DNA of 64,000 bases from a virus (IMGVR_UViG_3300033388_005412:32001-96000); one strand, 5' to 3'. Counted from the first letter of the stretch, positions 6,401 to 48,860 are shown. Numbers and translations: made by a program. The notes: generated from the sequence alone by a model not told the origin.

Positions 6401-8452
6401 CGGATTTTGTTTTATTTGTTTTAAATAATTAACTGTATTCACATCCGTACTGCCATTATCAATTATGACTATCTCATAAGGATATTTCGTGTTTTTTCTT
6501 ATATGATTGATACACGTTGATAATAAATCATATCTATCTTTATTTAAAATAATAATACTAACTGGTTCCTTTTTTGCCACGTTTGTTGTTTTAAATAATT
6601 TTTCATCAGGAATCATTTTGTTTATAACATCAACCCATTTCGGGCCGATATTCTCCCATGAATACTTCTTAACATCTTTTCTACCGCTCTCTCCCAAACT
6701 TTTAATCAGTTTTCTATCATTATATAGTATATCAAATGAATCAGTAATTTCAGATATTGATGGTATGGCTCGGCGAATATTTGTCCCGGGTTCAACATAA
6801 AAACCAACCGGTCTAATAAACATTGTTCCCTTTTGAAAATTTTTTAATTCAGAATAATCTGTTATCACCGCTGGAGTCCCTGTAGAAAGGGAATCGCAGT
6901 TATGGGCGTATGCCACACCATTCACTATGTATGTATTATCATCTTCAACTTCTAAATTATAAACATATCCCTTGTACATTTTTCCCACTATTTTAGTGAT
7001 CGGCGTTTTAACATATGATCTGAATTCATTATCAACAACTCCTGTTTTGCTTCTTGAATTTGTTCTTCTTTTTGTCGTGTCCAATGCTATATTCTGATAG
7101 ATATTTAATTTAGTTTTACTTAATTTATTATGAATTCCCATTGATAAAAGACAATCGCGCATCCTGGCTAAGATTGGAAAATCCGTACAACGATGTGATA
7201 ATTTCGGGAAATGTGTGTCCAGTCGTAATTGTTTTCTTACTATTTTCTTTTCAACATCGGATGTTTCGATTATCGGATACCATAATAAATCACCGCGTTT
7301 CAAATGTTTTGCTGTTTTCCATGCCTTTGCTGTCCAAAACCTATGATTAGGTGTAACTTGTATAGGTGTCGACGTCTCGGTATATATATTGTAAATTTTA
7401 CCAGTATAATGTCTTTTAAAAACTTTAAGAACTTTTTTTAATTTACCTCTATGTGTATAAACATAATTTCCCGGCCGGATCCACTGAATTGGCTTATGTT
7501 CATATTTGGTTTTCACATAAGTATTTCTTAAAAAGCACACCGTACCGCCGAAGCCTTCCCCGCTTGACGGCAGCGTTGTTATGTCACACGCGTTATACAG
7601 TCGATTTAGTTTTTCAATTGGAACACCGTGCCCCAGTTGTAACGATGGATTTAATATAACTTTAGATTTGACATTATGATCACCTACCAATGAATGTAGG
7701 TCCCACCCGGCCGGATCATTTATTGCAGTATGCAAATATAAATATGTATTTGGTTTATTCCATTTTGCAAACGCCTCTATAGCATATGGTAGACCCTTCC
7801 TGGGATTTTGTCGGCCAAAATAACCAATAATAAATGAGTCTATATTAACATTCCATATTTGGGTTTTAATGCTTTTTTTATTTTTGAGTGGAACAAATTT
7901 ATTGATCTCACAACCGTCTGATATAATTGTCGTGAATTTCTTCATTATTTTATCCTTCTCTTTTGTTGATAGTTTTGATAATGTTGTTTGAAATCGTTCT
8001 TTTATAACCCGAAAAGCATACGGTCCCGCCGCAATTAATTTATCGGCCGATGCCAGTATTTGCGGACATGATATTATTTGATGTTGATTTTTAACAATAT
8101 TCGGTAATGGCTCGCCTTCTATATGAACATATAAAATTGTTGGAACTTCAGTATTCAGATATGGTTTGGCCGCCCAAATATCAGTTATTATAATTATCAA
8201 ATCAGGTGAAAATTCATTAACTATTTTATCATATTGTTTTTTCTGAAAATGTCGCGGATTGCCGCCTAAATTAACAGGCCATGATATTGTTTTATTATTA
8301 TAATTGTCGTTTTCATTATTTCTTGGATCAAATAATCCAATATGTTCAACAGCAAATCCATTATTATGTAAATAATTACCCAACCCACGACCCAACTGGC
8401 CAAAACCCGTATCGAGAAACGGGCTATCTGAAATTAATAATATCTTCTTCAA
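3464..8452 (-). CDS. Five-domain glycosyltransferase (GT4 with intein, GT2, GT2, GT2/GT7-like, GT4)
   Basis: GT4 motifs RQNPRKG and EGFG; GT2 starts VSIIILN (LNND) and ISIIIPTYN (FSDAD); third GT-A domain with TDAD and WGGED; C-terminal GT4 motif NEGLPTPLVETCACGIP. Confidence 0.9.
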   Translation of the reverse strand: MKKILLISDSPFLDTGFGQLGRGLGNYLHNNGFAVEHIGLFDPRNNENDNYNNKTISWPVNLGGNPRHFQKKQYDKIVNEFSPDLIIIITDIWAAKPYLNTEVPTILYVHIEGEPLPNIVKNQHQIISCPQILASADKLIAAGPYAFRVIKERFQTTLSKLSTKEKDKIMKKFTTIISDGCEINKFVPLKNKKSIKTQIWNVNIDSFIIGYFGRQNPRKGLPYAIEAFAKWNKPNTYLYLHTAINDPAGWDLHSLVGDHNVKSKVILNPSLQLGHGVPIEKLNRLYNACDITTLPSSGEGFGGTVCFLRNTYVKTKYEHKPIQWIRPGNYVYTHRGKLKKVLKVFKRHYTGKIYNIYTETSTPIQVTPNHRFWTAKAWKTAKHLKRGDLLWYPIIETSDVEKKIVRKQLRLDTHFPKLSHRCTDFPILARMRDCLLSMGIHNKLSKTKLNIYQNIALDTTKRRTNSRSKTGVVDNEFRSYVKTPITKIVGKMYKGYVYNLEVEDDNTYIVNGVAYAHNCDSLSTGTPAVITDYSELKNFQKGTMFIRPVGFYVEPGTNIRRAIPSISEITDSFDILYNDRKLIKSLGESGRKDVKKYSWENIGPKWVDVINKMIPDEKLFKTTNVAKKEPVSIIILNKDRYDLLSTCINHIRKNTKYPYEIVIIDNGSTDVNTVNYLKQIKQNPAIRVYNHPEEFNFSRFCNLGAKYSKNNILCFLNNDAFVEIDWLNNMVEELAKPKVGVVGAKLLFQDGTIQHAGIEIDKQCNCKHSYIGKPGGHPQANETKEVQAVTGACFMTRHDLFDKLGCFSIQYKMESSDVDYSLKAEDVGYKTIYAHKAVAKHITCATRSRSGDERLIDDRNMFKSKWCDKLSNKPDKSVLINTNNLLINNGSSDTSSDTPLISIIIPTYNCGKYFPDLISSIYNQTYKHFEIIIVNDGSTDDTENILKELYADGYKFKVINCNKHTNANIAREKGYEKSKGDYLLFSDADSEWDPQMLEKMAGVLKDNPKISYAYSDYKRKGIINDTFKTINFNASYLKKSNYISMMSLIRKKDFPGLDPYIQRAQDWDLWLTMLENNKIGKHIPEPLFMAHVRDNSITGGSVISWPDAVNIVKRKHHMDNKENVSIILTLKNRASMLHRMFETISNQNYKNFEIIISDFHSTDIDFNDLRQKFKFPIRIVQNEKEFNRSCGLNAGAAVAKYSRLFFTDADMLFPENFTDIMSSNIKENQACFPICKNEKTLQCADKLGWRKGGYGNCGIHKTDFEKIGKWPESFQQWGGEDNFMFWKCGAENIKTIRDKVSEFIHQDHESAAPQIRSKEFLNNILESKKNYIQKKGKGNLNIALIYDSPDWAIHSQAKGFINNIKSDVNYTAYSMREFLTLNLEKYDMIFAMASFGMSRANFAPALLNRPNVTMVHHNPYSIGLENSEISGNIWIKNEIQFIQNGLRHSTISENIIQAWKDKHSIDAYYLPSGIDTNMFKFHNILENNAITIGWVGNKNKKLKGYYDIIIPAIDIVKKQYPNVIFKTHGYENLIPHEKMPEFYSDIDLYICASSNEGLPTPLVETCACGIPFVSTEVGVTSEINISYLNCIVNRDVDSLADGIIKMIKDPERMKQAGLSNRKIIVAGWSWDIVADIWECFILGDMEKFHQIHSKRRDKINNI
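6899..7537 (-). mobile_element. Mini-intein (213 aa) inside the GT4 catalytic motif
   Basis: Block A starts CFLRNTYV; block B VTPNH (TxxH); block F VYNLEVEDDNTYIVNG; block G AHN followed by extein Cys. Splicing restores EGFGGTVCDSLSTGTP. Confidence 0.93.
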
Positions 8453-8664
8453 AATATCTTTTTCTTTTTTCTTAAAAACAACATTCCATTTCCACCGTGA
8501 CCGGATAATTTCGCGTGCCCAACTTCATATCCGTCTGGCAAATCAACAGCGTCCACAATTTCTTTTGAAAAATAATAAAACATTCTATTTTTGGAATATC
8601 TCGCAAGTTTAGAATGTAAATAATATGTTATTCCTGTTTTAGGATGAACAACGCTGCATGCCAT
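8449..8664 (-). CDS. Small basic hypothetical protein (TYYLH...YYFSKE...LPDGYEV...GMLFLRKK type)
   Basis: 71 aa, ATGA-type overlap; the pattern resembles a recurrent small prokaryotic hypothetical family (from memory, not searched). Confidence 0.6.
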   Translation of the reverse strand: MACSVVHPKTGITYYLHSKLARYSKNRMFYYFSKEIVDAVDLPDGYEVGHAKLSGHGGNGMLFLRKKKKIF

Positions 8665-22322: not shown

Positions 22323-22697
22323 TCAGTCACTACTGACCTCCACTTTATACCAATCTGTTGAATGTAAATAATCAATAACTTCCTGTGACATTGTATTTGC
22401 CTCAATATTATATCCAATAAATTCTACATAAGGAATATTAAAAAACCAAGTTATTTCAGTTTCGTTAAAATTTCCCTGCACTAATCGCTTGCTATCGTCA
22501 ACATTGCTTATATAATGAGTAATATCTCTCGGTTGTCCTGACGGATTTCGTCCCTGCAAACCCCTCGCAAGAATATTATCAAAAACAATTTCTCTGGAAG
22601 GGTCGGGGAGAAACGATGTATCAACGGAAAAATAGCATCTTTCATCAGCCTGAATAAAGCAAGCCACGAACAAAAATATAATTATTCTTTTTTTCAT
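22323..22697 (-). CDS. Secreted hypothetical protein (Sec signal peptide)
   Basis: MKKRIIIFLFVACFIQA-DE: basic n-region, hydrophobic h-region, cleavage after Ala. Confidence 0.65.
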   Translation of the reverse strand: MKKRIIIFLFVACFIQADERCYFSVDTSFLPDPSREIVFDNILARGLQGRNPSGQPRDITHYISNVDDSKRLVQGNFNETEITWFFNIPYVEFIGYNIEANTMSQEVIDYLHSTDWYKVEVSSD

Positions 22698-23413
22698 TAT
22701 CTTACCCCCACCTGTTCTTCATATCTGTATAGTATTTCTGCGACAGACCAACTTCTTTCTGAAATTATTACCTCATCTATGGCCGTGTTTACAATTCCAG
22801 TTCCCGCACTTCTCGCACCGATTATAACATTGTCCGCTAAAAATGGTTCAATATCCCCAACAATATAGCAATTATCTTTTCGGATTCCGTCTAAATATAT
22901 TTCATAATTTGTCCCATTGTGCCTTAAAACTAAATTATGCCAATCCGCAGAAATGGATTCTGTTGAGCTACACCAACCGATTGTAGCTGCGCCATAGGCT
23001 TGTATATAAATAATTTCGTTCAGGAAGGAGCTAGTTCCCGCCCCTAACCAAAGTAACTGCTGATTTACTCCGCCTATTTGCATAATGATTTTATATGCCG
23101 ACGCAGACGTTATTGGGGTATCGGGATTTAACCATAGTGAAATTGTGCGAGCATATTTTCCCATATCTCCAACATTAACATCATCACTCCCGTCAAAAAA
23201 TAAACACTTTCCTAACCAGCTATCAATCCACAACGCACCAGTTATAGTTCCGTTATTCCCCTGCCCCGAAACATCGTAAGCGGTAGACCCAGTCCCTTTG
23301 TTAAAATGCCAAAGTCCTGCAGTGTAAGAAGTAGACCCTAACTGATAATCACCTTTCCATTCTGCAAAAGAAACCCCACAAAACAATAAAATAATCAGTA
23401 ATTTTTTCATCAA
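22697..23413 (-). CDS. LamG/concanavalin-A-like lectin domain protein with signal peptide
   Basis: MMKKLLIILLFCGVSFA-EW; GLWHFNKGTG...DVSGQGNNGT...LFFDGSDD...TISLW...WHNLV...IYLDG...IDEVII = LamG pattern. Confidence 0.85.
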   Translation of the reverse strand: MMKKLLIILLFCGVSFAEWKGDYQLGSTSYTAGLWHFNKGTGSTAYDVSGQGNNGTITGALWIDSWLGKCLFFDGSDDVNVGDMGKYARTISLWLNPDTPITSASAYKIIMQIGGVNQQLLWLGAGTSSFLNEIIYIQAYGAATIGWCSSTESISADWHNLVLRHNGTNYEIYLDGIRKDNCYIVGDIEPFLADNVIIGARSAGTGIVNTAIDEVIISERSWSVAEILYRYEEQVGVR

Positions 23414-26376
23414 TCTTCCTTAAAAATTGCCACGACCGAAACTCCACCTGGCGAGTCATTTTCGTCAACATCTTCAAAATCTATACCAATAGCTGTATTT
23501 TCATCGCACCTTATTCCTGTAAAAAATTTCAGATAAGTCACTCCCGCCGTAATAGACAATGTTGTTGTGCTTACTCCGTCACGCCATACCCTGATAGTAA
23601 AAGCGTCAGGTGTTGCCGATGTAATTTTAATATGAAATGCCTCAACATTTCCAGTCGCTCCGCAAACTTCAAACCAATGGCCGTTAGTGTAAAGAGTATC
23701 GCTTGAATTATAAATATTAGAAGCCCCTGTTCCACCATATAAAGCTATACGGTGATTGGATGAACCGCCTGCGCCACCACCAGTGCTATTTATTGTCACT
23801 ATTCCTCGCCCGTCTGTCGGTGTAATTGTAATATTATCTCCTGCAAGTATCTGCGAAACACCTGTTGACATTCCGGTTTCATAATCGTTTTTGTTTACAT
23901 AAGTTTCCGTTGCCGAACTCTCGTCAAGTTTATATGTTATATCTGTTATGTTAGTCAGCACCTGCACACCTGTCGTTGAAATAGCCGCCGCATTTGCGTC
24001 TATCAAATCTTTGTTCGTGCCCGTGCTTACGCCAATAGCCGTTATTTCAGTATCTGTTGTTACTATTTCGTCGGACAATGCCGCCCCTGTTGACCGCAAA
24101 GCCGTGTAAATCGTCGTCGTATCTGTTGCCACATTTTCAAAATCTACATTAGTTGCTATTATCTCCACTGATAGCGCCGCCCCGGTACTTTTTAATTCAT
24201 CGTAAATCTGCCCCGTTGTCGCTGCCGTTAAACTCAAATCCGCCGCAATTGCATAATCAGATATTGTGTATTCTTCCGCCGCCCCTGCGCCGTCAAATCC
24301 AGCAAATGTACTTGCCGTGCCTGTATGACCTGAATTTGTCCACGCCAATGTTCCTAAATCAGGGTGATTCGGCGGTGTGGATATTTTGTATGGTATAATA
24401 TATCTATTATCAATTTCTATAAAATTCGGTTCGCCTTCTTTAACTATTATTCTTGCCGCTAATATCCCAAAATTATTCACAACCGAGGGTATCGTAGCCG
24501 GGTCATCGGAGAGTTGGGCATCAATAAGTTTCAAAAATTGCTCCTGCCCATAGACTACATTTATATCGCTGTCATAATGAACATATGCGTATTGGCACAT
24601 ATAATAATTATTTGTAAGCGCAACCGTGCTACCGCTGCCATCGTCATATGCTGTGTTATCCACTTGTGTCAATGAACTTACTGAAATCCAATCGCCCGCG
24701 TCGCCCCTATACCACGCTATAAACCTCGCCGCATCCGATGTATCTTGTGTTGTTGTTTCTATGGGATTGTTTCCGTGCCAGAATTTCCCCGTCGTTGATG
24801 TTAAATACCTTTCTCCTGTTTCAGCAATCACTCCGCCGAATTCTCTCTCAAATCCTCTTACACCAACTACCCTTTTTCTTGCTCTATGCCGCCAATCATA
24901 AACGTTAAGCCCTGTGTCTATGTGGTGCATTGTGTTATCGCCGTTTTTATAAACAAGTCCTATTCCAAACTGTGTCTGTCCGTTTATTTCAGTTGTCGCC
25001 GCCGTTGTGGATATTTCTACATTTCCACCGTTGTAATCAATATAAACTTTTATAACAATGCCCGAAGCTATATCAATATCATATTTGCCGTCAAAATCAA
25101 AAGACACAAGTGTTGCCGTTGAACTCGCCGTAGTCCGTATCATTCCCGTGCCGCTTGACACTGATATTGTGCCGTCGCCGTTATCTGTAATTTGCCCACC
25201 GGTTGCTCTGCCTGCCGAGCCTGCAATATATATATAGTCTTGTGAGGTGTCGTATGTTGCGGAATTAAGGTTATTAATATAAACGTGATTTGCAGTAACA
25301 GAACTTGCCACAACACCGGTAAAATTAGAACCGTCAAAAGTTGGTGACGAACCGGATGTTACATCTTGGTTAATATAGCTGTGGTCACTGCCGTCATTTG
25401 CAATATGATCAGACAGAGCGGCAGCCGTGCTTTGCAAGGCAGTATAAATTCCACCTGTTGATATTCCAATTGCCTCTATAGCATCATCGTTCGTAGTTAT
25501 CTGTCCCTGTAATGAATCAACCTGTCCACTCAAAACAGCTGTTGAATACTCAAGCGCGGCAATTCTATCTTTATTCTCACCTGTTGATACCTGTAAATCA
25601 TATATATCAGCAGCATTTGTTCCCGTAGATACGGCTATATCATTTTCTCTCGCCACTGCTCTTGTTATTTCTGCGGATAACGCCGCAGCTGTTGAATTTA
25701 ACGCCGCATATATGGTCCCTGTGGAAACGCCCAGGGCGGCATCACCACCTATTCTATCTGATATCTCAGTATTAAGGTCAGTTCTTAATGTTGAAGTATC
25801 TATAGCAACATTTTCAAAATTAATATCTGTCGTCGCTATTTCCTCTGACAGCGTCGCCCCTGTTGACTGCAACGCCGCATAAATTGTACCAGTTGAGACT
25901 CCTAATACGCTATCGCCATTTTTTCTATTTGCGATTTCTGTTGTAAGATTATTTGCATTTGTTGTTGTATCCGTTGCAACATTATTAAAATTGGTATCGG
26001 TGTCTGCTATTTCTTCATCAAGAGCCGTCTTGATAGTACCGGTACTTGCCGCCGTTAAAGACCAACTGCTTCTAACCGCAAAATATGATTCATCATGATT
26101 ATCAAGTAAGTCAGAATCGGCCGCCTTTTCTGTTTTATATAAATATGTATCAGGTGCTGAACTTATAAACACAGGATCTGATTCTGCACCGCCGGCACCA
26201 AACTGTAAATCCACATAATCTTTATTTGCCGCCTGGCCACTTATTGTTGGTGTAGCTGTATATATTGTACCGCCCCTAAAATCCCATGAGCCAACTGGTT
26301 CGGCGTCATTTGTTTTTATATCCCATGCATATAATTGAGCCCCCAACAACAAAATTCCAAATAATATTTTTTTCAT
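23410..26376 (-). CDS. Large fibre-like protein with signal peptide and Ser/Thr-rich coiled-coil repeats
   Basis: MKKILFGILLLGAQLYA-WD (start at 26376 behind AGGAGG); AANKDYVD, ESDPVF and ADSDLLD fibre motifs; repeated STGTIYAALxST.AxLS.EI units. Confidence 0.7.
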   Translation of the reverse strand: MKKILFGILLLGAQLYAWDIKTNDAEPVGSWDFRGGTIYTATPTISGQAANKDYVDLQFGAGGAESDPVFISSAPDTYLYKTEKAADSDLLDNHDESYFAVRSSWSLTAASTGTIKTALDEEIADTDTNFNNVATDTTTNANNLTTEIANRKNGDSVLGVSTGTIYAALQSTGATLSEEIATTDINFENVAIDTSTLRTDLNTEISDRIGGDAALGVSTGTIYAALNSTAAALSAEITRAVARENDIAVSTGTNAADIYDLQVSTGENKDRIAALEYSTAVLSGQVDSLQGQITTNDDAIEAIGISTGGIYTALQSTAAALSDHIANDGSDHSYINQDVTSGSSPTFDGSNFTGVVASSVTANHVYINNLNSATYDTSQDYIYIAGSAGRATGGQITDNGDGTISVSSGTGMIRTTASSTATLVSFDFDGKYDIDIASGIVIKVYIDYNGGNVEISTTAATTEINGQTQFGIGLVYKNGDNTMHHIDTGLNVYDWRHRARKRVVGVRGFEREFGGVIAETGERYLTSTTGKFWHGNNPIETTTQDTSDAARFIAWYRGDAGDWISVSSLTQVDNTAYDDGSGSTVALTNNYYMCQYAYVHYDSDINVVYGQEQFLKLIDAQLSDDPATIPSVVNNFGILAARIIVKEGEPNFIEIDNRYIIPYKISTPPNHPDLGTLAWTNSGHTGTASTFAGFDGAGAAEEYTISDYAIAADLSLTAATTGQIYDELKSTGAALSVEIIATNVDFENVATDTTTIYTALRSTGAALSDEIVTTDTEITAIGVSTGTNKDLIDANAAAISTTGVQVLTNITDITYKLDESSATETYVNKNDYETGMSTGVSQILAGDNITITPTDGRGIVTINSTGGGAGGSSNHRIALYGGTGASNIYNSSDTLYTNGHWFEVCGATGNVEAFHIKITSATPDAFTIRVWRDGVSTTTLSITAGVTYLKFFTGIRCDENTAIGIDFEDVDENDSPGGVSVVAIFKED
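25478..25602. repeat. 125-bp dispersed direct repeat, copy 1 (copy 2 at 48553-48677)
   Basis: Aligned by eye: 123 of 125 identical, both mismatches at synonymous third positions; encodes YDLQVSTGENKDRIAALEYSTAVLSGQVDSLQGQITTNDDA. Confidence 0.95.
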
Positions 26377-26386
26377 ACCATTCCTC

Positions 26387-28480
26387 CTAATTTTCATAAA
26401 TTACAACATCACCCTCATATGTTGCCACACTAATAACTGAGTTTGTATTGCCATACCGTGCTATTGTATCATCAGGATATGTTGCAATCATATTTATTAT
26501 CTGATTTATTGTAAATGTTTCTAATTTTCCACTGTTTTCTGAATATGCCGCCGATGATACAGATGATGCAAATGGTAAATTCGTTAAATTACTGCCATCA
26601 CCATAGAAATACGTCGCCGAAGCTTTTCCTACCACATAAACATTTGTATCTATATGTACACCAAAATCATCAGTCGTTATGTTTCCTGTATCCAACGCTA
26701 TTCCTGTCACCGTAATTGTATCTTTTATAATAGCGTTATCTCCGTATAAATCATCACCGTAAATATCGCCCGCCACCCTCGTCGTCGCGCCCATTGTTAT
26801 TTCAGAACCGTCATATTCTATGCTCGTCACTCCACCACCTATATGAAAATCAATACCCGCTGTATTTTCTGAATATGCCACAAAATATCCCCCGCGAGCC
26901 CCTTGGTTAATTGCATCAGGATAATTTTCACTCCCCCCGTCAAAAATTGCCGCTCCCCCTTCTGATGAAACGAAAAATTCACCATCTCCGACATCTATTG
27001 CAAGCCCCCTATTTTTTTGGTAATCGCTTGACTTTGGTTTTATCGTCGCCAAATCAGTATTTAATACTTCGTAAGAAGATAAATATGTGCTTTCTGTATA
27101 ATAATCAAAAGAACAATGACTCTTATAATTTATCCACGAAGTTCCTATTGCCATATAAGGTTGTAAGAATGTCTGCAATGTAGTTTCATATGAGCCTGTA
27201 TATATTGTTGTACGATTTTTAACAAATCTATATGTTACTGTTGTATCGTAATGTTTTAATGTTATTAGCGCGTCGTCTCCATCGTTCATAGTGAATGACA
27301 AATCAACGCTCCTCTGTGCACCTTCTGTATCTATGTAATAAAAATAAACACCAGCGCCACCAAAACGGTTAGCTTGTTGTATATAAAATCCTATCTTTGG
27401 AAAAATGTCAGGGCTATCCCTTTTCAGTCCTATAAAATACCCCCACATTATATCCCAAATCTCTCCTTCCTCGCCTATATCATTCCGTGCCGTCATATCC
27501 CATGTAGCAGTCAACACAGTTGCTGATGAGTTAAATGTTTTATTTCTTGTAAATAGCACGGCGCCATCGTTTGGAGAAGGTGGAGTTACATCTTGTTTTA
27601 TATGTAATTCTCCTGCCTCCACATAACATCCACCAGAGTCGGTAGGGTTATCTGCATATATCCAATCATTGACAATATCCGGGTAAACATCAAAATTATC
27701 CGTAAACCGTGAGTCTGCTTTATTATTATAATCTTCTTTTTCCACAAACCCGTCAATCTTAATCGTATTCGTCGTCCCCGTCGTCCAATAAGTATCCGAG
27801 GAATAATGCACCATTGAACCGTTAAACTGCGATCTACCTGTTTTACCATCAAGAACTATATTACAAGTTGCGCCGTTTGTTAATTTTATATTTGTTGAGT
27901 TCATTATTAATGAACCATTCATTTCATCGCCTTGGGTTGAAACAAAAGCATCATAATTTCTACCGTCCAATAAATCACTGTCATGTGCTTTCCACGTTGG
28001 TGTGTCTAAAAATAATTGATAATCATAACCATGTAATCCATCAAGTTTATCACTGTTATCACTATTATCACTGTTGTCACTGTTATAACTATCATATGCT
28101 TTCCATGACGATGTATCCAAATATAATTGAAAATCTGAACTATCATACCCATCCAATAGATCACTATCATACGCCTTCCATGTTGAAGTATCTAATTTTT
28201 TCTGATATATTGATTCGGCATCGTTTTTCTGCAAATATACTGCCGGGCCTGAACTTGTAAACACAGGATCACTTTCTTCCGGTGATCCAATACCGGTTAA
28301 ATTCGATCCATCGCCGTAATATGTTGTCGCCGATGAATAACCCGTAATATATGTATGGCTTGCTATTTTAATTTCCGCGCCGTCAGTTGTTTTTATACTA
28401 TTTCCTGACATTCTTAAGGTGGCGCACACAGGTGAAGTCAATGCGGCTAAAATTATAAAAATATCTCTATATTTTCTCAC
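26387..28480 (-). CDS. Fibre-like protein with signal peptide and DSDxLDG repeats
   Basis: MRKYRDIFIILAALTSPVCA-TL; YYGDGSNLT twice, ESDPVF, three DTxxWKAxDS(D.LDG) repeats and a central lectin-like beta domain. Confidence 0.7.
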   Translation of the reverse strand: MRKYRDIFIILAALTSPVCATLRMSGNSIKTTDGAEIKIASHTYITGYSSATTYYGDGSNLTGIGSPEESDPVFTSSGPAVYLQKNDAESIYQKKLDTSTWKAYDSDLLDGYDSSDFQLYLDTSSWKAYDSYNSDNSDNSDNSDKLDGLHGYDYQLFLDTPTWKAHDSDLLDGRNYDAFVSTQGDEMNGSLIMNSTNIKLTNGATCNIVLDGKTGRSQFNGSMVHYSSDTYWTTGTTNTIKIDGFVEKEDYNNKADSRFTDNFDVYPDIVNDWIYADNPTDSGGCYVEAGELHIKQDVTPPSPNDGAVLFTRNKTFNSSATVLTATWDMTARNDIGEEGEIWDIMWGYFIGLKRDSPDIFPKIGFYIQQANRFGGAGVYFYYIDTEGAQRSVDLSFTMNDGDDALITLKHYDTTVTYRFVKNRTTIYTGSYETTLQTFLQPYMAIGTSWINYKSHCSFDYYTESTYLSSYEVLNTDLATIKPKSSDYQKNRGLAIDVGDGEFFVSSEGGAAIFDGGSENYPDAINQGARGGYFVAYSENTAGIDFHIGGGVTSIEYDGSEITMGATTRVAGDIYGDDLYGDNAIIKDTITVTGIALDTGNITTDDFGVHIDTNVYVVGKASATYFYGDGSNLTNLPFASSVSSAAYSENSGKLETFTINQIINMIATYPDDTIARYGNTNSVISVATYEGDVVIYEN
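28047..28082. repeat. In-frame 9-bp tandem repeat x4 (Asn-Ser-Asp)
   Basis: ttatcactg ttatcacta ttatcactg ttgtcactg. Confidence 0.9.
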
Positions 28481-28674
28481 GGCTCAACTCCCCATTTTTC
28501 AACCCAAATACCCAATTCACGTCTTTCTACTAAAAAATTATTATCGCTCACAATTATTCTGTATGTCCCATCCTTATTTTTATTACCTATATATATAACA
28601 CCTGTTTCAATATCGCCGCCATCGCCTGAAATATGCTGCATCTTCCTGGTAAAAGGATTTAAAATCACCCTCAT
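28477..28674 (-). CDS. Small tail-region protein
   Basis: 65 aa, NPFT motif, 4-bp overlaps with both neighbours. Confidence 0.65.
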   Translation of the reverse strand: MRVILNPFTRKMQHISGDGGDIETGVIYIGNKNKDGTYRIIVSDNNFLVERRELGIWVEKWGVEP

Positions 28675-37745: not shown

Positions 37746-39572
37746 TCATTCCAAATACGCATACGACGAAACATCTTCAACTGTTCTATCCTGCTCATTA
37801 TATTCCAATATATTATCACTATCTATACTATAAATAGCAACTCCACGAAAATAAAAATCAATCGCAGGATCAAATTCTAATGAATAATATTCTTCCGGCG
37901 TATATAAAACATACATGGTGCTATCATATGTTCCACCGCCGAACGGCAAAACCGCACCCTCACTCACAATATCATTCCACGAACCCAAATCGCCGAACAC
38001 AGAATAACCATCAAATAAATCAGTTCTATTTATATAATAATCATCACCCGCATTTTTAATACCGGCCGCGGCAAAATATGTTGTTCTTATTTCATATCCC
38101 GACACCAGATACTGGCCCCAGTATCCATCAACTGAAACTCTCATATCTTTCATCGTATTAACAATTCCACTGGGTGTTGGAACCCCGCTCGGCGGAACAA
38201 TACCGCTTGGGACCGGTAAAAAACCATGTCCATTATAATAATCCATAGCATTCCAAAATCCTGATGTCTCATTCACAGCATCTTCACTTGTAACAGGCGG
38301 CCTTTCTAATTCCGGATGCGCGGCCTCCCAATCACCATGTTTTTCCGGAGCATTCCAGATCGCAAAATCATCTATCTCTGTTTCTGCATCTGTATTAGAA
38401 GCCCATATTTCGCCATACAGACCCGATGGTTGAGACGCGAAACAATTGAACCCCATTGCTGTTTTAGCCTGTTGAGAATCCCATATGTTATCCGTATCGA
38501 GCTGAAATACGCCGGTATATATTTCCATAAACGCACCTGGTGTCTGTATCCATATAGACGAGGAAATAACATCTTCAGCCTTTACAAATATATGTGATCC
38601 TGATAAAGTTCCCTCTAGAAAAAAATCCAAATAAGCAACACCGTCGGCATCTGTCGTCGCCATGCCTTTGTATTCAACACTATCATCCTCTTTTACTTCA
38701 TACCACGTTATATCAACACCGGGCATTCGAATGCCCGAGGAGTCCTCGGCTAAAGCATATGACCTGAATATTGTATTAGCTCTCGTATACGACACCCACA
38801 TGGGCTTAACTTCCAATGTTGCTGTATCTACCGGCACTTTCTTTAAAACAAGATATTTATCCTCAAAAGGGATTCTTCTGGTTAATGTTCTCTCAAGTTC
38901 TTTTTCAAATACCAGATATAAATCTTCATCGTACGCATATCCGCTTGGTGTCGGTATCCAGTTTTCGCCGCTCTGCGCCCACTCAACCTCATAATCTTTA
39001 TTTACAGGTGTTTTACACATATTCTCGGCGGTAAACGATTCAGGAACTATGAAATAAGGTTCACCCTGCTCATATTCATAAGCCACGCCGCTTGGAACCG
39101 GTAAAGCGACTTTCTCCATATCAGCAAATAAATAATATTCCTCATTATCTATATAAAAATAGCCCGGCTTAACAACAGGATACTGACCGATTCCAGAAGG
39201 TGTGATATCAATCTGTTTTAAATTATCTTCAAGACCGCCAACGCCGTTTATATAATCACTTACATCAATATCCTTATAAAATTTAATAGATTTATTTGCT
39301 TCAGGACCCGATGAACAGCCTATCAGTTTTAATGTTCCAAACGCGGCAAATTCTGTCTTAAACTGAACTGTTTTTTCAACACCGGATTCTACATCGGCGG
39401 TAAAAATTTCGCCATCTTCATATTCGATAATAACCTGTCCGTCATTCGGTAGATTTATTATTAAAGATTTTAAACCATATAGAGTTCTATTGAATATTAA
39501 GGGATCGGCGATTGTGCCCAAACCAGCCCAGTAATCGCCGAACAACGTATCTCTAAAAACACACTTTATCAT
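37746..39572 (-). CDS. Putative structural protein with an Ig-like (Big_1-type) segment and PSG repeats
   Basis: GVDITW...GMATTDADGVA Ig-like signature; PVPSGIVPPSGVPTPSGIV. Confidence 0.55.
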   Translation of the reverse strand: MIKCVFRDTLFGDYWAGLGTIADPLIFNRTLYGLKSLIINLPNDGQVIIEYEDGEIFTADVESGVEKTVQFKTEFAAFGTLKLIGCSSGPEANKSIKFYKDIDVSDYINGVGGLEDNLKQIDITPSGIGQYPVVKPGYFYIDNEEYYLFADMEKVALPVPSGVAYEYEQGEPYFIVPESFTAENMCKTPVNKDYEVEWAQSGENWIPTPSGYAYDEDLYLVFEKELERTLTRRIPFEDKYLVLKKVPVDTATLEVKPMWVSYTRANTIFRSYALAEDSSGIRMPGVDITWYEVKEDDSVEYKGMATTDADGVAYLDFFLEGTLSGSHIFVKAEDVISSSIWIQTPGAFMEIYTGVFQLDTDNIWDSQQAKTAMGFNCFASQPSGLYGEIWASNTDAETEIDDFAIWNAPEKHGDWEAAHPELERPPVTSEDAVNETSGFWNAMDYYNGHGFLPVPSGIVPPSGVPTPSGIVNTMKDMRVSVDGYWGQYLVSGYEIRTTYFAAAGIKNAGDDYYINRTDLFDGYSVFGDLGSWNDIVSEGAVLPFGGGTYDSTMYVLYTPEEYYSLEFDPAIDFYFRGVAIYSIDSDNILEYNEQDRTVEDVSSYAYLE

Positions 39573-39784
39573 TTTGTTAATTTTACACGTTTCCTAAACA
39601 CCTTGTCAAGCATACATAACACTTCCATTTGGAAAAATGATATAAAAACATCAGCCGCTTTTTCGGGATCATTTTTATTTTTTTCTATAATTCTTATAAT
39701 CATCGGCCTGTATTTTATAAAACTAGAAACATATTCTGATAACTCGGTATGTATAAATCCGGATATTTTTCTTATCAAATACAT
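39569..39784 (-). CDS. Small helical protein, paralog of 42127-42336
   Basis: Shared pattern Y.P....IIEK...P...AD..I.FF..E....L..VF.K. Confidence 0.65.
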   Translation of the reverse strand: MYLIRKISGFIHTELSEYVSSFIKYRPMIIRIIEKNKNDPEKAADVFISFFQMEVLCMLDKVFRKRVKLTK

Positions 39785-39786
39785 AA

Positions 39787-40161
39787 TTAAAACAATTTAA
39801 AAACCACTTTAGCTAACACTGTCCCGCCGGCGCTAAAAAACGCCACAAGTATTGTCACCATAAATATGCGCAATATCTTCACAGTTGCCGTGTTTTTTGT
39901 TGTCTCATCTATTGTTGTATTTATCAAACCGTTTTTCGGGTTATCTAAAACATAAAGACGTTCATTAATACCAACTACTTGTTTTTTCTGTTCTTCATAT
40001 GCCGAACTCAATTTACCAACTTCTTTCTCAACTGACTTTGTCACATTAACATTTTCCTGGACATCATTTATTAGATTACTAATTTGCGCATTAGTTTCTC
40101 CCATAAATTTTGCAACCTTTTCAACAAGATCCACGACGTATTCTTCAGTTTTCCCGTTCAT
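39787..40161 (-). CDS. Coiled-coil protein with a C-terminal TM helix (XhlA/holin-like)
   Basis: Heptads followed by ILRIFMVTILVAFFSAGGTVLAKVVF; GGAGGG RBS; lysis-like cluster. Confidence 0.5.
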   Translation of the reverse strand: MNGKTEEYVVDLVEKVAKFMGETNAQISNLINDVQENVNVTKSVEKEVGKLSSAYEEQKKQVVGINERLYVLDNPKNGLINTTIDETTKNTATVKILRIFMVTILVAFFSAGGTVLAKVVFKLF

Positions 40162-40171
40162 ATCAACCCTC

Positions 40172-40303
40172 CTACTTTTTTATAAATTCTGATATCTGTT
40201 TCCAGAATGCCTCAAACTTTCGTCCAATTATAAAAAATATAATTGAACCGCAACCAAAACATGCACACTCGCGCAATGTAAAATATTCCATAAAATTTAA
40301 CAT
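40172..40303 (-). CDS. 43-aa membrane peptide
   Basis: Not in the track; MLNFMEYFTLRECACFGCGSIIFFIIGRKFEAFWKQISEFIKK fills the gap between neighbours. Confidence 0.5.
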   Translation of the reverse strand: MLNFMEYFTLRECACFGCGSIIFFIIGRKFEAFWKQISEFIKK

Positions 40304-40304
40304 A

Positions 40305-41000
40305 TTATTCCTTAGACTCTTCAACAGACTTTTCAACAGACTTCTCAATAACTAAATATCCACTATCTCCGCCAACCCAACAACCCAGGTTAATGTAATC
40401 TTTATTATTATATTTAATATGTTGTTTATGATGGGTATGGCCAAAAATAACAGTATCATAATCATTTTTCAATAATAAATCTTTTGCACCAGATTCATAT
40501 CTAGCATGATCATCTCTTTTCTTCATCTTCAATATTCTCAACTCAGAACCGGCTTTACGAAAAATAAGTCTTTCTATATAACCGTAAAACTTAACAAAAG
40601 GAATTATAACCTTCCACCATTTCTTTTTTAAAAGATCATATCGATGGCCGTGCTCGCAATGATATTTTTTACCATTATGCGAGAAGTTAAATTCAGTACA
40701 AGTTTTAAAGGGAAAATCAGAATTTGACATAAGCTCATGATCATGATTACCCAAAATACATATAACATTATAAAACTTTAACACAGCAAATAATCTTCTG
40801 TATTTTTCCCAAATTTTATCATAGTTTGCTTGCCAGAGCTCTAAAAAATCACCGACAATTATAATAAAATCCGGACTCACGTTATGTGTTATTTCTATTA
40901 GCTTATTCTCTTGTGCGGATCCGAAATTATCTTCGCCCCCCTTGGATGCCAAATGAGTGTCAGAAAATAATAGAATTTTTTTGCCTGTTAAATCTAACAT
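40305..41000 (-). CDS. LpxH/YbbF-like metallophosphoesterase (UDP-2,3-diacylglucosamine diphosphatase-like)
   Basis: FSDTHL, VGDFLELW, GNHD, EHGHRYD, FGHTH, YINLGCW. Confidence 0.8.
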   Translation of the reverse strand: MLDLTGKKILLFSDTHLASKGGEDNFGSAQENKLIEITHNVSPDFIIIVGDFLELWQANYDKIWEKYRRLFAVLKFYNVICILGNHDHELMSNSDFPFKTCTEFNFSHNGKKYHCEHGHRYDLLKKKWWKVIIPFVKFYGYIERLIFRKAGSELRILKMKKRDDHARYESGAKDLLLKNDYDTVIFGHTHHKQHIKYNNKDYINLGCWVGGDSGYLVIEKSVEKSVEESKE

Positions 41001-41521
41001 TTACCATCCTTAATTTTAATATTTTGTTCCATTTCTTTTTTTATTTTAGCAAATTCGGGATCTAATTTCATGAGCCATAAGTTTTGATATTTAATTCTAC
41101 TATCTACAAGATATTTATTACGCTTTGCAAGTGCTGTAATACGAGCTTTCATGAATCCAATTAAAGCAAGACAAATACTTACAATTCCGGCAAAAATAGA
41201 TTTCATTAAATTAGTATCATTAACTGTTTTCGTTATAATATCTCTCCCGGCATTTTGTGCAATGCTTTTATCCAAACCAGCACTTACTTTTGCAACAGTA
41301 TTTGCCTGGGCCGACATCTTAACTTCAAGTTTATCTATTTTACTTTTTAGACCAACAACCTCGATCTCATTATCGCTCATCTGCTTGTTAACCGAATCCT
41401 GAAGTTCAGTTATCTTTTTTTCATATTTGGCAGAAATTCCAAATAACTTATCAATAAAAGATGCCCTCACCGGCGCAGAACATAACAAAACCAAACATAA
41501 AATACATACATTATTTTTCAT
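40994..41521 (-). CDS. Signal peptide + coiled coil + C-terminal TM protein (spanin-like candidate)
   Basis: MKNNVCILCLVLLCSAPVRA; heptad stretch; SIFAGIVSICLALIGF TM helix; basic tail. Confidence 0.45.
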   Translation of the reverse strand: MKNNVCILCLVLLCSAPVRASFIDKLFGISAKYEKKITELQDSVNKQMSDNEIEVVGLKSKIDKLEVKMSAQANTVAKVSAGLDKSIAQNAGRDIITKTVNDTNLMKSIFAGIVSICLALIGFMKARITALAKRNKYLVDSRIKYQNLWLMKLDPEFAKIKKEMEQNIKIKDGKC

Positions 41522-41708
41522 AATAATACCCCCAATTTATCACAGAACAATTTTTATTTTTCAAATTTGTATCATCATATTTAAGTTCTTCAATTTCTCC
41601 GTTTTTGTATGCCTGATTAATACAATACACTCTGTTATGACATTCACGGCAATCCTTACTGAGATGAACTATCTTTTTTTCCACCCTACCTCCAATCAAA
41701 TTTCCCAA
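41511..41708 (-). CDS. Small Cys-containing protein
   Basis: CRECHNRVYC...C; 65 aa. Confidence 0.55.
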   Translation of the reverse strand: MGNLIGGRVEKKIVHLSKDCRECHNRVYCINQAYKNGEIEELKYDDTNLKNKNCSVINWGYYYEK

Positions 41709-41880
41709 AATAAATTCTTGCTGTCAAACCTATCACACCAATTAAAAGTATCGATAAACCCCACCAAAAAGAAAAATTATTACATGTTATATAGGAAATA
41801 AATAATAAACACAAACCCGCAATAATTTGAAATGGCCAAACCCAAATCAGCTGATATAAAATAAGCCCCCACCAAGTCAT
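41686..41880 (-). CDS. Small two-TM membrane protein (holin-like candidate)
   Basis: MTWWGLILYQLIWVWPFQIIAGLCLLFISY...FWWGLSILLIGVIGL; start at 41880 overlaps the upstream stop (ATGA). Confidence 0.55.
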   Translation of the reverse strand: MTWWGLILYQLIWVWPFQIIAGLCLLFISYITCNNFSFWWGLSILLIGVIGLTARIYFGKFDWR

Positions 41881-42020
41881 AATTTGCCTCCACGGACATA
41901 ACAACCCAAACAAATATATTTCTGCCCTTTTGCTTTAGGTTTTTCATTTGGCGGAAAATAATCAAGCTTTTTAAACGGAAACATTTTTCCGCAATTTATA
42001 CATTTTCCTTTTCTTTTCAT
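41877..42020 (-). CDS. 47-aa C4 zinc-finger microprotein
   Basis: Not in the track; MKRKGKCINCGKMF...YICLGCYVRGGKL (CxxC...CxxC). Confidence 0.65.
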   Translation of the reverse strand: MKRKGKCINCGKMFPFKKLDYFPPNEKPKAKGQKYICLGCYVRGGKL

Positions 42021-42023
42021 CTG

Positions 42024-42134
42024 TTACCACCTGAAATAGTTACGAAAATACATAAACCACGTTGTGTTCATGTTTTCATACATAAACCATGCCCCGACCA
42101 AAAACCCGAATAAAAAAACTAATATATCATGCAT
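42024..42134 (-). CDS. 36-aa membrane peptide
   Basis: Not in the track; MHDILVFLFGFLVGAWFMYENMNTTWFMYFRNYFRW, with an internal duplicated WFMY. Confidence 0.5.
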   Translation of the reverse strand: MHDILVFLFGFLVGAWFMYENMNTTWFMYFRNYFRW

Positions 42135-42336
42135 TCTTCTTTTTAAAAACCCCGTTTAAAAGTTTCATCAATTCCACTTTAAAAAAATCTATCACCCTAT
42201 CGGCGATTTCACTGGGCGGCAATTCCTTTTCTATGATTTCAGTTAAAAGCGGCTTATATAAATCCAACTTATTTATATTTTCTTTAATTTCTTCAAAAAG
42301 AAAATTACCGAAATACCTTATCAAACCTCGAATCAT
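42127..42336 (-). CDS. Small helical protein, paralog of 39569-39784
   Basis: Same shared pattern as its paralog; GGAGGG RBS. Confidence 0.65.
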   Translation of the reverse strand: MIRGLIRYFGNFLFEEIKENINKLDLYKPLLTEIIEKELPPSEIADRVIDFFKVELMKLLNGVFKKKNA

Positions 42337-42345
42337 ATTTCCCTC

Positions 42346-42831
42346 CTATGTGTAAGGATATCCCCGCCAATCAGCTTTCAACGGCCCAAGCCTTAATCGC
42401 GGAAATACCCGATCTCTCCCTATACAATCTATAATTTCCAAATCAAATTCATCAACATCTTTAACCTTACTCATAAACTCATTAAAACCCTTTCTGGATT
42501 TCAATATGCCGTTCCACCAATGTTTTTTATAATAAAATCTCTCAAACATTTCACCAACAAGAACACACCCAAGTGTGTGTGTATCTACAATTCCAGTATG
42601 TATAATAATTCCTTTTCTTCCTGGGACATTCATAATTTCAAAATATCTTTTATATTTACCCCATGTCCGGCGTTTACAGTGATAGGTTTCGGACGGTATA
42701 CAAGATTTGTTTTGTTTATTTTGCCGCCAAGGGAGCTCCAATGTAAGCGCGAACGGGGTATCACCGTCTATAAAATTACCATATGTTGCTTCACTGTTTT
42801 CAGCGACCCGTTTAATTGTTAATTTCTTCAT
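42346..42831 (-). CDS. DUF5675-family protein (L,D-transpeptidase-like fold, putative endolysin)
   Basis: TLELPWRQN....SCIP..TY...NVPGR.GI.IH.G....T.GC.LVG. Confidence 0.8.
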   Translation of the reverse strand: MKKLTIKRVAENSEATYGNFIDGDTPFALTLELPWRQNKQNKSCIPSETYHCKRRTWGKYKRYFEIMNVPGRKGIIIHTGIVDTHTLGCVLVGEMFERFYYKKHWWNGILKSRKGFNEFMSKVKDVDEFDLEIIDCIGRDRVFPRLRLGPLKADWRGYPYT

Positions 42832-43205: not shown

Positions 43206-43210
43206 AACAT

Positions 43211-46931: not shown

Positions 46932-47300
46932 TCAGTTGCTGCTGATATCCACATCATAATTAATTTCATTTAATACTAAAATTCTATTCTCAGTTGTTAC
47001 CGGAAAATAATTAATAATATCAACAGTGGTACCAGTTGAAATAAATGCCTTTTCCTGTATTGCATAATAACCATACTTACGCACCTCATTAATTATAACT
47101 TTGTACTCTTCAACGCTTAATTCATTATCCGTTTCAATTACCACCTCATCGCCGTCTATTGCCCATGTAAATGGTGAAGAAATTATAATTTCGAGTGCGC
47201 CCGTACTAACCAATTCTGGATTAACATGCTTTTTAAAATTGTAAATATATCCTGCATTTAATATACTCACACAAATCAATAATGCTATAACACTTTTCAT
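46932..47300 (-). CDS. Secreted hypothetical protein (Sec signal peptide)
   Basis: MKSVIALLICVSILNA-GY; ST motifs (VSTG, ISTGT); AGGAGG RBS. Confidence 0.65.
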   Translation of the reverse strand: MKSVIALLICVSILNAGYIYNFKKHVNPELVSTGALEIIISSPFTWAIDGDEVVIETDNELSVEEYKVIINEVRKYGYYAIQEKAFISTGTTVDIINYFPVTTENRILVLNEINYDVDISSN

Positions 47301-47309
47301 ATTTCCTCC

Positions 47310-48860
47310 TTAATTCGGCTTATGATAAACTATTTTCAGATAAACATAATCTAAATCATAATAAGCCGTTCCATTTGTCGGCGACGTGGTTTCATTGAGC
47401 ATTGTTTCCCACTTTCCCGTATAACAAAGTTCTTTGGGTATCGGCACTATGGTTGGAAACCATACCCAGTCCGTTTCTGTTGTTTCACTATAAACATTTG
47501 GGTTCGGATAATTCAAATTGTTATCCGGGGTTCTTACCTTCGCCTTTATTTTGACTGTTATATCTGTTGCCGTGGAATGCGCCGCCGCATAAAAATACAT
47601 ATCCGCGGATATAATTGTATTTGTGTCAATATCCAAATGCATATAAACAGGGTTTGTGAATTTGTCACCGGCGGAAGTTCCCGACCCAGAAGTTTGACTT
47701 TGTGTTTCAAATGGGAATATAACTTCTGTAACAGTATATGTACTTACTGTTTCATATGATTTCCAACTTCCTGAGTTTACGACTGCCTCCGTTGATATAT
47801 ATAATGTGTGATCAGAAACCTGATACGCCATAGTTCCTTCTTCATGTCCACTTGTCGGCAAATTTGTAAATGCTCCGGCAAACCCCAACCCGTATCCGGA
47901 TGTTGTTGCTGTTGATACTTGAAGCTTTTCAGTTGATGTTGGTTTACCGATACTAACATTAAGTTCTTTAGTTATTCTCACAGCCTCAACAGAATTACCC
48001 GCTCTCAACGACAATTCTCCATTTGGATTCGATGCTCCTATCTGCATAAGAAATTTACCATATTCCCATCTAATCATCCCACCGCTAATATCGGCAGGAC
48101 TTCCAAAATATACATTTGAAGCATTTGCATTAGGTGTAATTAACGATATCCCACCTGTAGAATCACTCTCTACAACAATATCATCCGCGACACCGGCGAC
48201 AGCCGAAACTCCAGATAAACCCGATATCACATGAAAAGCGCCCTTGGCTTTACAAGCCGTTGTTCCGGCAATAATTTGTCCTATAGCATTCATACACAAC
48301 CCGCCCTTACCATCTGATGTTAAAAAGTGCAAATCTCCATCTAGAGTTGTTATCGTTGAAACCTTTACATACCCGTTCACTGTAATTGTGTCTACAATGA
48401 CATTACCGGAAAACACAGGATTATGTGTTGATGCTTTTTGATCATACAATGTCTGTGTTGATACACCAAGATTATTAAAATTAGAATCTGTTGCCAGAAT
48501 TTCGGCATCCAATTCAGACTTGATTGTCCCGGATGATTCACCAAGTATTTCAATAGCGTCATCGTTCGTAGTTATCTGTCCCTGTAACGAATCAACCTGT
48601 CCACTCAAAACAGCTGTTGAATACTCAAGCGCGGCAATTCTATCTTTATTCTCACCTGTTGATACCTGTAAATCATAAATTGCGGTGGAAGATATACCAA
48701 CTACGGAATCAATAATACCATCATAATCCGCATCATACACGGCCCTCCTCATATCACCCATTCCGCTATATCCGCCAAATCCGCCAAACGGATTAGCAAA
48801 AACATATTTGCCGGAAAGCAATATACAAAATACTACAAAAAATTTTAATATTTTATTCAT
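47310..48860 (-). CDS. Fibre-like protein with signal peptide
   Basis: MNKILKFFVVFCILLSGKYVFA-NP; GDM...YD.D.DG..D motif, coiled coil shared with the 23410 gene, beta-helical IG...P/T..L.V repeats. Confidence 0.7.
   Translation of the reverse strand: MNKILKFFVVFCILLSGKYVFANPFGGFGGYSGMGDMRRAVYDADYDGIIDSVVGISSTAIYDLQVSTGENKDRIAALEYSTAVLSGQVDSLQGQITTNDDAIEILGESSGTIKSELDAEILATDSNFNNLGVSTQTLYDQKASTHNPVFSGNVIVDTITVNGYVKVSTITTLDGDLHFLTSDGKGGLCMNAIGQIIAGTTACKAKGAFHVISGLSGVSAVAGVADDIVVESDSTGGISLITPNANASNVYFGSPADISGGMIRWEYGKFLMQIGASNPNGELSLRAGNSVEAVRITKELNVSIGKPTSTEKLQVSTATTSGYGLGFAGAFTNLPTSGHEEGTMAYQVSDHTLYISTEAVVNSGSWKSYETVSTYTVTEVIFPFETQSQTSGSGTSAGDKFTNPVYMHLDIDTNTIISADMYFYAAAHSTATDITVKIKAKVRTPDNNLNYPNPNVYSETTETDWVWFPTIVPIPKELCYTGKWETMLNETTSPTNGTAYYDLDYVYLKIVYHKPN
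48553..48677. repeat. 125-bp dispersed direct repeat, copy 2 (copy 1 at 25478-25602)
   Basis: 123 of 125 identical to copy 1, same orientation. Confidence 0.95.

Follow-up and report, generated by a model that had tools for sequence, protein, structure and literature searches.

Four consecutive genes of a contractile-tailed jumbo phage, at positions 22323-28480 of the sequence analysed here, encode what we predict to be the chains of one tail fibre, and each of them begins with an N-terminus of the type that directs proteins to the Sec pathway and signal peptidase I. The sequence, hereafter the window, is a stretch of 64,000 nucleotides taken from an IMG/VR virus record (bases 32001-96000) that is 203,294 bp long, carries direct terminal repeats and has a GC content of 34.8%; positions refer to the window unless a related contig (L003-L010) is named. 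The signals are real, non-random and conserved among the relatives of these genes. The reading we favour, to which we give a probability of roughly 0.4, is that the fibre chains are exported by the host Sec system, cleaved and assembled in the periplasm, and that the finished fibres are attached to the virion after the holin has opened the inner membrane.

Four consecutive genes with signal-like N-termini

The window carries a long late operon on the minus strand, which includes a baseplate wedge homolog (phrog_6, 2e-40), giant proteins in the hub and tape-measure positions and many unannotated structural genes. The four genes, called P0001-P0004, form the distal end of this operon, downstream of the wedge homolog, where they adjoin the late baseplate genes and are coupled to them in translation through overlapping stops and starts; a scan of the locus for terminator and promoter signals found none above chance. 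All four minus-strand open reading frames (ORFs) are real and tightly packed. P0004 (26387..28480, 697 aa; signal-like peptide aa 1-20, nt 28421-28480) starts with GTG at 28480, and its Shine-Dalgarno (SD) sequence GGGGAG at 28488-28493 overlaps the upstream stop. P0003 (23410..26376, 988 aa; signal-like peptide aa 1-17, nt 26326-26376) starts with ATG at 26376 behind the SD sequence AGGAGG at 26383-26388, which agrees with the start proposed in the initial annotation of this region; an alternative upstream ATG at 26397 would merely lengthen the basic segment. P0002 (22697..23410, 237 aa, LamG/ConA-like; signal-like peptide aa 1-16, nt 23363-23410) starts with ATG at 23410 behind AAGGAAG, and P0001 (22323..22697, 124 aa; signal-like peptide aa 1-17, nt 22647-22697) starts with ATG at 22697 behind GGTGGGGG, its start overlapping the stop of P0002 (TAATG).

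Each of the four proteins starts with M-K/R-K, followed by an uncharged hydrophobic core of 10-14 residues and an Ala at position -1. This arrangement of a basic segment, a hydrophobic core and a small-x-small site (n-h-c layout) resembles that of Sec signals cut by signal peptidase I, with putative cut sites LYA↓W in P0003 (mature protein from W18), SFA↓E in P0002 (E17), IQA↓D in P0001 (D18) and VCA↓T in P0004 (T21); here as in the relatives, cut sites were placed by eye and the signals are inferred from sequence. Whole peptides measure 14-27 residues (median 16), and since their cores are only 10-14 residues long, they are too short to be stable membrane anchors. The four consecutive signal-type N-termini described in the initial annotation thus stand, with SD-backed starts and the n-h-c layout in all four genes. 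When we counted signal-type ORFs by a strict custom rule over 356 crude ORFs of the 203-kb genome, 10 qualified as signal-bearing and the longest run consisted of P0001-P0004; a run of four occurred in 1 of 20,000 shuffles. The baseplate genes on either side had been said to lack such signals, and this holds for the N-termini of all seven neighbours (upstream 65, 609, 538, 522 and 796 aa; downstream 73 and 364 aa).

Other types of targeting signal were considered and rejected. The lipobox is not conserved, which speaks against a lipoprotein identity; there is no twin-arginine motif, a bare RR being found in one relative only; and the G↓F-x-x-x-E motif of type IV pilin signals is missing.

Conservation of the signals in relatives

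We collected 29 putative signal peptides from this phage and its relatives. Position -1 is Ala in 25, Ser in 2 and Gly in 2 of them, and the residues at position -3 are small or aliphatic throughout (Leu 10, Ile 6, Val 5, Ala 4, Cys 2, Ser 1, Gly 1), while Phe is frequent at position -2. The first six residues carry a net positive charge in 28 of the 29 peptides, those of P0001-P0004 included. Pooled identity is 31% in the signal part versus 46% in the first 45 mature residues, and the length of the signal varies as well; this faster divergence and variation in length are like the evolution of a targeting peptide.

All 12 relatives that align from the N-terminus bear a signal (among them P0006, P0008, P0010, P0011, P0017, P0014, P0015, P0016, a 520-aa protein of L006 and a 601-aa protein of L007), and the signal sequences differ among these relatives of P0003 and P0004. 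Relatives that share the central domain only, namely P0007, P0009, P0012 and the tail fibre of the cultured Stenotrophomonas phage DLP_6, have ordinary N-termini. Five of the six small relatives of P0001 carry a signal, and one of the small relatives also has a C-terminal membrane anchor. We take the signal to be a selected property of the fibre cassette in every phage that carries it. IMG/VR scans with P0003 and with the P0004-family alignment gave no relatives, and a metagenome scan gave two N-terminally truncated fragments only. A search for sequencing runs that cover 22323-28480 gave none.

P0001-P0004 as the proposed chains of one modular fibre

The fibre-type motifs quoted in the initial annotation are indeed present in P0003 and P0004 (YYGDGSNLT, ESDPVF, DSDLLD and NKDYVD). 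P0004 consists of the signal-like peptide, a lineage-specific N-terminal repeat region, a conserved body of ~450 aa and a short C-terminal tail, as would suit a proximal fibre piece. P0003 has a conserved joint near the N-terminus, behind its signal-like peptide, continues into a shaft of STG repeats and a central domain, and ends in a tip domain, as would suit a distal piece. The central domain of P0003 has weak to moderate matches to the 'tail fiber protein' of Stenotrophomonas phage DLP_6 (E 1e-4), to that of a Caudoviricetes sp. (E 2e-9) and to a 'virion structural protein' (E 2e-5). Its AlphaFold2 (AF2) model is poor (predicted local distance difference test score, pLDDT, 46.8), and repeats are evident in the fibre sequence. 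Searches of PDB sequences with P0003 and P0004 returned no match, and a protein atlas gave leads only, all under 0.9.

The relatives show how the parts belong together. P0003 is 41% identical to the signal-bearing P0006 over 88% of its length, and the body of P0004 is 37-42% identical to P0014, P0015, P0016 and the 520-aa protein of L006, all of which bear signals. In P0014 and P0015 a P0004-type body runs straight into a P0003-type shaft: residues 119-548 of P0015 align with residues 196-635 of P0004 (E 7e-74), and residues 549-622 with residues 94-185 of P0003 (E 7e-12). Such a Rosetta-stone fusion implies that P0004 and P0003 are parts of one fibre. The fused proteins have one signal each and no internal hydrophobic segment, whereas the split genes P0004 and P0003 have a signal of their own on each piece. 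P0015 ends in a Peptidase_S74 chaperone domain. The order P0004-like, P0003-like, LamG is repeated in L006; a signal-bearing LamG gene follows the P0003-type tip in 5 of 5 cases (G000, L004, L005, L006 and L009), whereas fibres with other tips have no LamG gene behind them, and a P0001-like gene follows the LamG gene in three phages (G000, L004 and L009). We therefore propose that P0001-P0004 are the chains of one modular distal tail fibre, in which P0004 would be the proximal rod, P0003 the distal rod, P0002 a LamG partner of the tip and P0001 a small alpha/beta partner. That they are fibre proteins follows from their position at the end of the baseplate operon, the overlapping stops and starts, the matches to tail fibres and the S74 domain of P0015.

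The LamG label given earlier to P0002 is confirmed by Pfam Laminin_G_3 (PF13385) at residues 83-227, above the cut-off (39.1 versus 27.6 bits, E 1.1e-9), and P0002 is a candidate partner of the C-terminal tip domain of P0003. Complex prediction with three copies of the P0003 tip and mature LamG gave a score of 0.60, the best of three controls being 0.00. This score was calibrated on 80 solved complexes, of which 58 reached the mark, and on 110 mismatched pairs, of which 2 did; among those reaching it a score of 0.60 or below was obtained for 7 of the 80 solved complexes and for both of the passing mismatches. Contact agreement among the tip-LamG runs was at least 0% and the pLDDT of the partner at least 72; the support from prediction for this complex is weak.

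The AF2 model of P0001 (pLDDT 75.5) shows a ferredoxin-like alpha/beta domain from which the N-terminal helix, modelled with low confidence, is detached, and a Foldseek search with it gave nothing below E 1e-3, generic ferredoxin-like folds only. P0001 also has a weak match to a region that is repeated within a protein of 2720 aa. In Pfam, that protein matches HYR repeats far above the cut-off and, sub-threshold, a C-terminal sorting domain of the type IX secretion system (21.3 versus 27 bits). The match of P0001 to it is a hint of extracellular use. A relative of P0001, P0021 on a 3198-bp ENA contig, has the look of a membrane- or sorting-anchored protein, which fits an extracytoplasmic location of the family.

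Distribution and mobility of the cassette

Signal-bearing modules of this kind occur in SU10-like podophages, in a long-tailed phage and in the contractile-tailed jumbo phage studied here. L004 belongs to a close relative of the jumbo phage (74-90% aa identity in 12 flanking genes), and in it a cassette of fibre, LamG, small-protein and HNH genes (L004 2725-7797) lies ~20 kb away in gene order, between homologs of window 43211-43486 and 42346-42831, where the window has a staphylococcal-nuclease gene. This displacement implies that the cassette is mobile; it seems to move within the lineage, possibly together with the HNH gene. L009, with a Mu-F-like protein and a tail terminator, is from a long-tailed phage, and L003, L007 and L010 are from SU10-like podophages of ~40 kb.

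In these small podophages the signal-bearing homologs, placed after the adaptor and nozzle genes, are the only fibre candidates, which argues strongly that they are parts of the virion rather than decoys. Signal-like N-termini are also found there (L007 3046-9132, L010 4708-10001) on a protein adjoining the capsid gene, on a paralog with the SU10_adaptor domain and on the protein in the nozzle position, which has ~1000 aa, beta-propeller-like repeats and an N-terminal DFxGGLN motif. The podophage portal, capsid, first adaptor and internal proteins have no signal. In two podophages a 116-aa HNH endonuclease encoded after the fibre genes (L003 12226-12576, L007 13563-13913) has a signal-like start that its L004 homolog (7417-7797) lacks; an exported HNH nuclease would be odd.

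Discussion

According to the reading we favour, each fibre chain would start out as a precursor bearing a short signal of the Sec type, cleavable by signal peptidase I; the host Sec translocon would export the chains, the signals would be cut off, and the chains would trimerise and join each other in the periplasm. The fibres would meet particles built in the cytoplasm without fibres only when the inner membrane is breached by the holin, or else in the lysate. We infer export, cleavage and late attachment to the virion. One signal on each separately translated chain fits a need of all chains for the same compartment. Fibres can be added to finished particles of T4 and P22 late, even in vitro. 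In Bdellovibrio, the MAT fibres are phage-fibre-like proteins that are exported by Sec and trimerise in the periplasm (PMC10769870). Among the proposals of the initial annotation, that of exported fibres matured outside the cytoplasm and added at lysis is best supported, as conserved and selected signals stand on real fibre parts; its glycosylation variant is not, since neither Wzy_C/O-oligosaccharyltransferase nor STT3 was found in the phage genome. A broader form of the reading, which we put forward only tentatively, is that across contractile-, long- and short-tailed members the host-recognition apparatus is built in another compartment than the rest of the virion, a two-compartment pathway that is undescribed for tailed phages.

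Besides the missing glycosylation genes, several points weigh against export. To our knowledge, no tailed phage assembles tail parts outside the cytoplasm. The evidence for export is that of sequence, with cut sites judged by eye, and the sample of relatives is small (~30 proteins from ~8 contigs). No signal peptidase was found among the phage-encoded proteins. The four mature proteins have 3, 3, 3 and 1 cysteines, and since these are few and apparently unpaired, oxidative folding gives no obvious motive for export; with the counts odd and the cysteines not conserved, we rejected disulfide formation as its driving force. If the fibres are attached only after the holin has fired, they would need to find the particles quickly or to cope with dilution. 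A signal on the podophage nozzle-like protein is awkward, being hard to square with the sealing of DNA-filled heads in the cytoplasm.

Some of these points would be met if the proteins are virion fibres whose signal-like N-terminus does not export the virion pool and either stays on or is removed in the cytoplasm, an explanation that we regard as the main rival, possible if rather doubtful. A retained N-terminus might serve as a hydrophobic plug at the joints between chains, as a membrane tether for late assembly or as a means of insertion into the host outer membrane during adsorption. Such an explanation would keep to the textbook rule of cytoplasmic tail assembly, would make the same N-terminus on the podophage nozzle-like protein easier to understand, agrees with the missing signature of paired cysteines and fits the fused genes as well, in which a covalent link would have made a joint element between the chains needless. 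However, a structural helix would not need the full n-h-c layout, with Ala, Ser or Gly at position -1 in 29 of 29 peptides and a basic start in 28 of 29, and a docking element should not diverge faster than the mature N-terminus nor vary in length. In the P0001 model the helix is detached and of low confidence, and the N-terminal positive charges would, by the positive-inside rule, leave most of the protein on the outer side of the membrane. Moreover, the same type of peptide is found on the Rz-like protein and the lipobox lipoproteins of these phages, which are necessarily Sec substrates. Export without a place in the virion seems unlikely to us: the proteins would then act in receptor masking or superinfection exclusion, as decoys or as adhesins, with P0001 as a protector like Llp or Cor. 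Exported proteins encoded beside fibre genes are well known, such as lambda Lom, T5 Llp and Cor, and a membrane anchor is present at the C-terminus of one relative of P0001. Envelope-directed proteins are numerous in huge phages (bioRxiv 10.64898/2026.10.24.761521), and in the present jumbo phage other large lectin-like proteins of the baseplate could be the receptor binders of the virion (F5/8 type C, E 1.4e-5, 25.7 bits versus a cut-off of 28.2). Yet a copy of the binding domains without a signal is missing from the genome, so that masking proteins would match no fibre of the virion, and the homologs are the sole fibre candidates of the ~40-kb podophages. Translational coupling ties the genes to the late baseplate operon, from which no terminator above chance level divides them, a multi-chain architecture in split and fused forms together with an S74 chaperone is a hallmark of fibres, and the alignment of the P0001 family has no conserved lipobox Cys. 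The suggestion of decoys or exclusion proteins in the initial annotation is accordingly disfavoured.

Quite improbable in our estimate is a recent capture from a bacterial repertoire of surface adhesins, MAT-like and from a predatory or epibiotic host, in which case the signals would be functionless leftovers. The architecture of MAT fibres is alike, with a signal, a conserved N-terminal domain, a trimeric shaft, a variable tip and, in some, an S74 domain, and one related contig was binned with a metagenome-assembled genome (MAG) of Candidatus Omnitrophica, a phylum suspected of host-dependent lifestyles. A capture had also been suggested before, with a GC and codon-usage scan of 22.3-28.5 kb as the check, and base composition speaks against it: the GC content at third codon positions (GC3) of the four genes is ordinary for the genome (z-scores -0.31 to +0.60 relative to the genome mean, hence within 0.6 SD), and the raised GC of P0003 results from its composition rich in Ala, Gly and Thr. 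The relatives found are all encoded on phage contigs, with capsid, portal, adaptor or baseplate genes as neighbours; beyond these contigs, the two MAG bins contain no copy of the fibre genes; and the solved MAT tips are not matched in sequence. The signals, for their part, are retained in proteins of 30-50% identity from phages of three morphotypes or more and are new on each split piece, which speaks for selection and against a relic. We give hardly any credence to an annotation artefact, in which the true starts would lie downstream and the hydrophobic stretch would be untranslated or due to chance. P0004 does have an in-frame Met24 directly after its hydrophobic stretch, and it is alone among the four proteins in this. 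But the upstream starts have strong SD sequences and Met24 has none; in P0001-P0003 the stretch from the hydrophobic core to the conserved start of the mature protein contains no start codon; and the feature is kept in homologs and forms the run of 1 in 20,000 described above.

Several published cases come near to the one described here. The MAT fibres of Bdellovibrio bacteriovorus show the feasibility of Sec export and periplasmic folding for such proteins, and a subset of them ends in Peptidase_S74, like P0015 (Caulton et al. 2024, PMC10769870). The signal is common to both systems; in MAT fibres it precedes a conserved, beta-rich N-terminal domain of ~130 aa. MAT genes, however, are chromosomal genes of the predator and serve its own surface, whereas the genes described here lie in phage tail operons with capsid, portal and baseplate genes, and the solved MAT tips have no sequence match here. 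In M13, the receptor-binding virion protein g3p is synthesised with a signal sequence, by which the preprotein engages SecY, and it is exported before it joins the particle (PMC8310372). An inovirus assembles at and through the envelope, unlike a tailed phage, the head and tail of which are expected to form in the cytoplasm. WceF is reported to be an exported tailspike-like enzyme (PMC7949094); in Porphyromonas phages, signal peptides occur on capsid, spanin and unknown genes (PMC10367356), and huge phages encode envelope-directed proteins (bioRxiv 10.64898/2026.10.24.761521). Our literature search found no tailed phage with Sec-processed tail proteins.

In gene order and design the set resembles the long tail fibre of T4, in which consecutive genes encode gp34-gp35-gp36-gp37, rods joined end to end, and the adhesin or chaperone gp38 as a small tip and assembly partner. 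Both have a proximal rod, a distal rod and small partners, and the T4 fibre is attached last, also in vitro. The T4 proteins differ in having no signal peptides and in being assembled in the cytoplasm, and there is no detectable sequence relation. T5 Llp and Cor are receptor-blocking lipoproteins with a lipobox Cys and, with lambda Lom, are small exported products encoded beside receptor-binding genes. P0001 is likewise small, signal-bearing and next to fibre genes, its exported status being predicted; unlike Llp and Cor, it has no conserved lipobox, always accompanies a LamG gene and a fibre tip, and would share a transcript with late genes.

What is new here is a contractile-tailed jumbo phage in which, among tail parts, signals are confined to the fibre cassettes, together with the occurrence of one cassette over three morphotypes and the argument from split and fused forms. 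Only with proof that the virion pool is exported would the finding be categorically new. Textbooks describe the assembly of tailed phages as wholly cytoplasmic, and if export is true, phage assembly and the timing of lysis need rethinking. Cytoplasmic defence sensors might then never meet the fibres, the fibres could be folded or modified in the periplasm, and host-range engineering with fibres of uncultured phages would have to plan expression for export. A compact cassette that is common to several morphotypes and carries signals on both split and fused forms makes a clean test case.

A second signal-bearing pair in the window

A second pair of a fibre gene and a small-protein gene, both with signals, lies at 46932-48860 on the minus strand, amid baseplate genes. 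The fibre-like protein (47310..48860, 516 aa, with a signal-like peptide) is a paralog of the P0003 shaft and is 47% identical to residues 258-399 of P0003. A 131-bp stretch of its gene (48550-48680) is 97% identical to 25475-25605 in P0003; the stretch encodes a coiled-coil segment that is near-identical in P0006 and P0010. Such identity suggests that the two signal-bearing fibre genes have recombined recently or have a docking segment in common. Directly after it lies the gene of a 122-aa protein (46932..47300, minus strand) with a signal-like peptide, which, like P0001, is comparable to Llp, Cor and Lom in size, signal and position, its export again being predicted. The signal is its sole likeness to the P0001 family (hhalign probability 6.6%).

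Lysis genes and host

The window also encodes an Rz-like protein (40994..41521, minus strand, 175 aa) with an N-terminal signal or anchor, a coiled coil and a second hydrophobic segment. It is kept in all related phages and is 51-56% identical to the proteins of L004, L007 and L010; the L010 homolog weakly matches the Rz-like spanin phrog_739 (E 3e-4). A scan of the genome collection with the Rz-like family returned the contig of L007 itself only. The protein indicates that host Sec targeting is in use by these phages, which probably infect a diderm. The M15 endolysin of the podophage relatives has no signal, and its gene lies next to those of small membrane proteins and the Rz-like protein, which makes a canonical holin step, mixing the two compartments, plausible. 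The M15 endolysin, the Rz-like protein and the lipobox lipoproteins together point to a diderm bacterial host with holin-dependent lysis, and they disfavour an archaeal host.

Binning gives no safe host. L003 (G001 contig 31) was binned with the Candidatus Omnitrophica MAG and L007 (G002 contig 1) with a Candidatus Methanoperedens MAG, and their DNA is 92-97% identical over ~2.4 kb; with near-identical contigs in bins of different domains, at least one bin must be wrong and neither is safe evidence of the host. Matches of the CRISPR-spacer type were none above chance.

The Rz-like gene is part of a block at 39569-43232 that interrupts the baseplate genes and further includes a metallophosphatase, a DUF5675 protein, the staphylococcal-nuclease homolog and small membrane proteins; the block may be a lysis cassette. 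In L004 a lipobox lipoprotein (8288-8521) is encoded just before the Rz-like gene, and the ORF at that place in the window (41511-41708), where alone a lipoprotein was sought in this phage, has neither signal nor lipobox.

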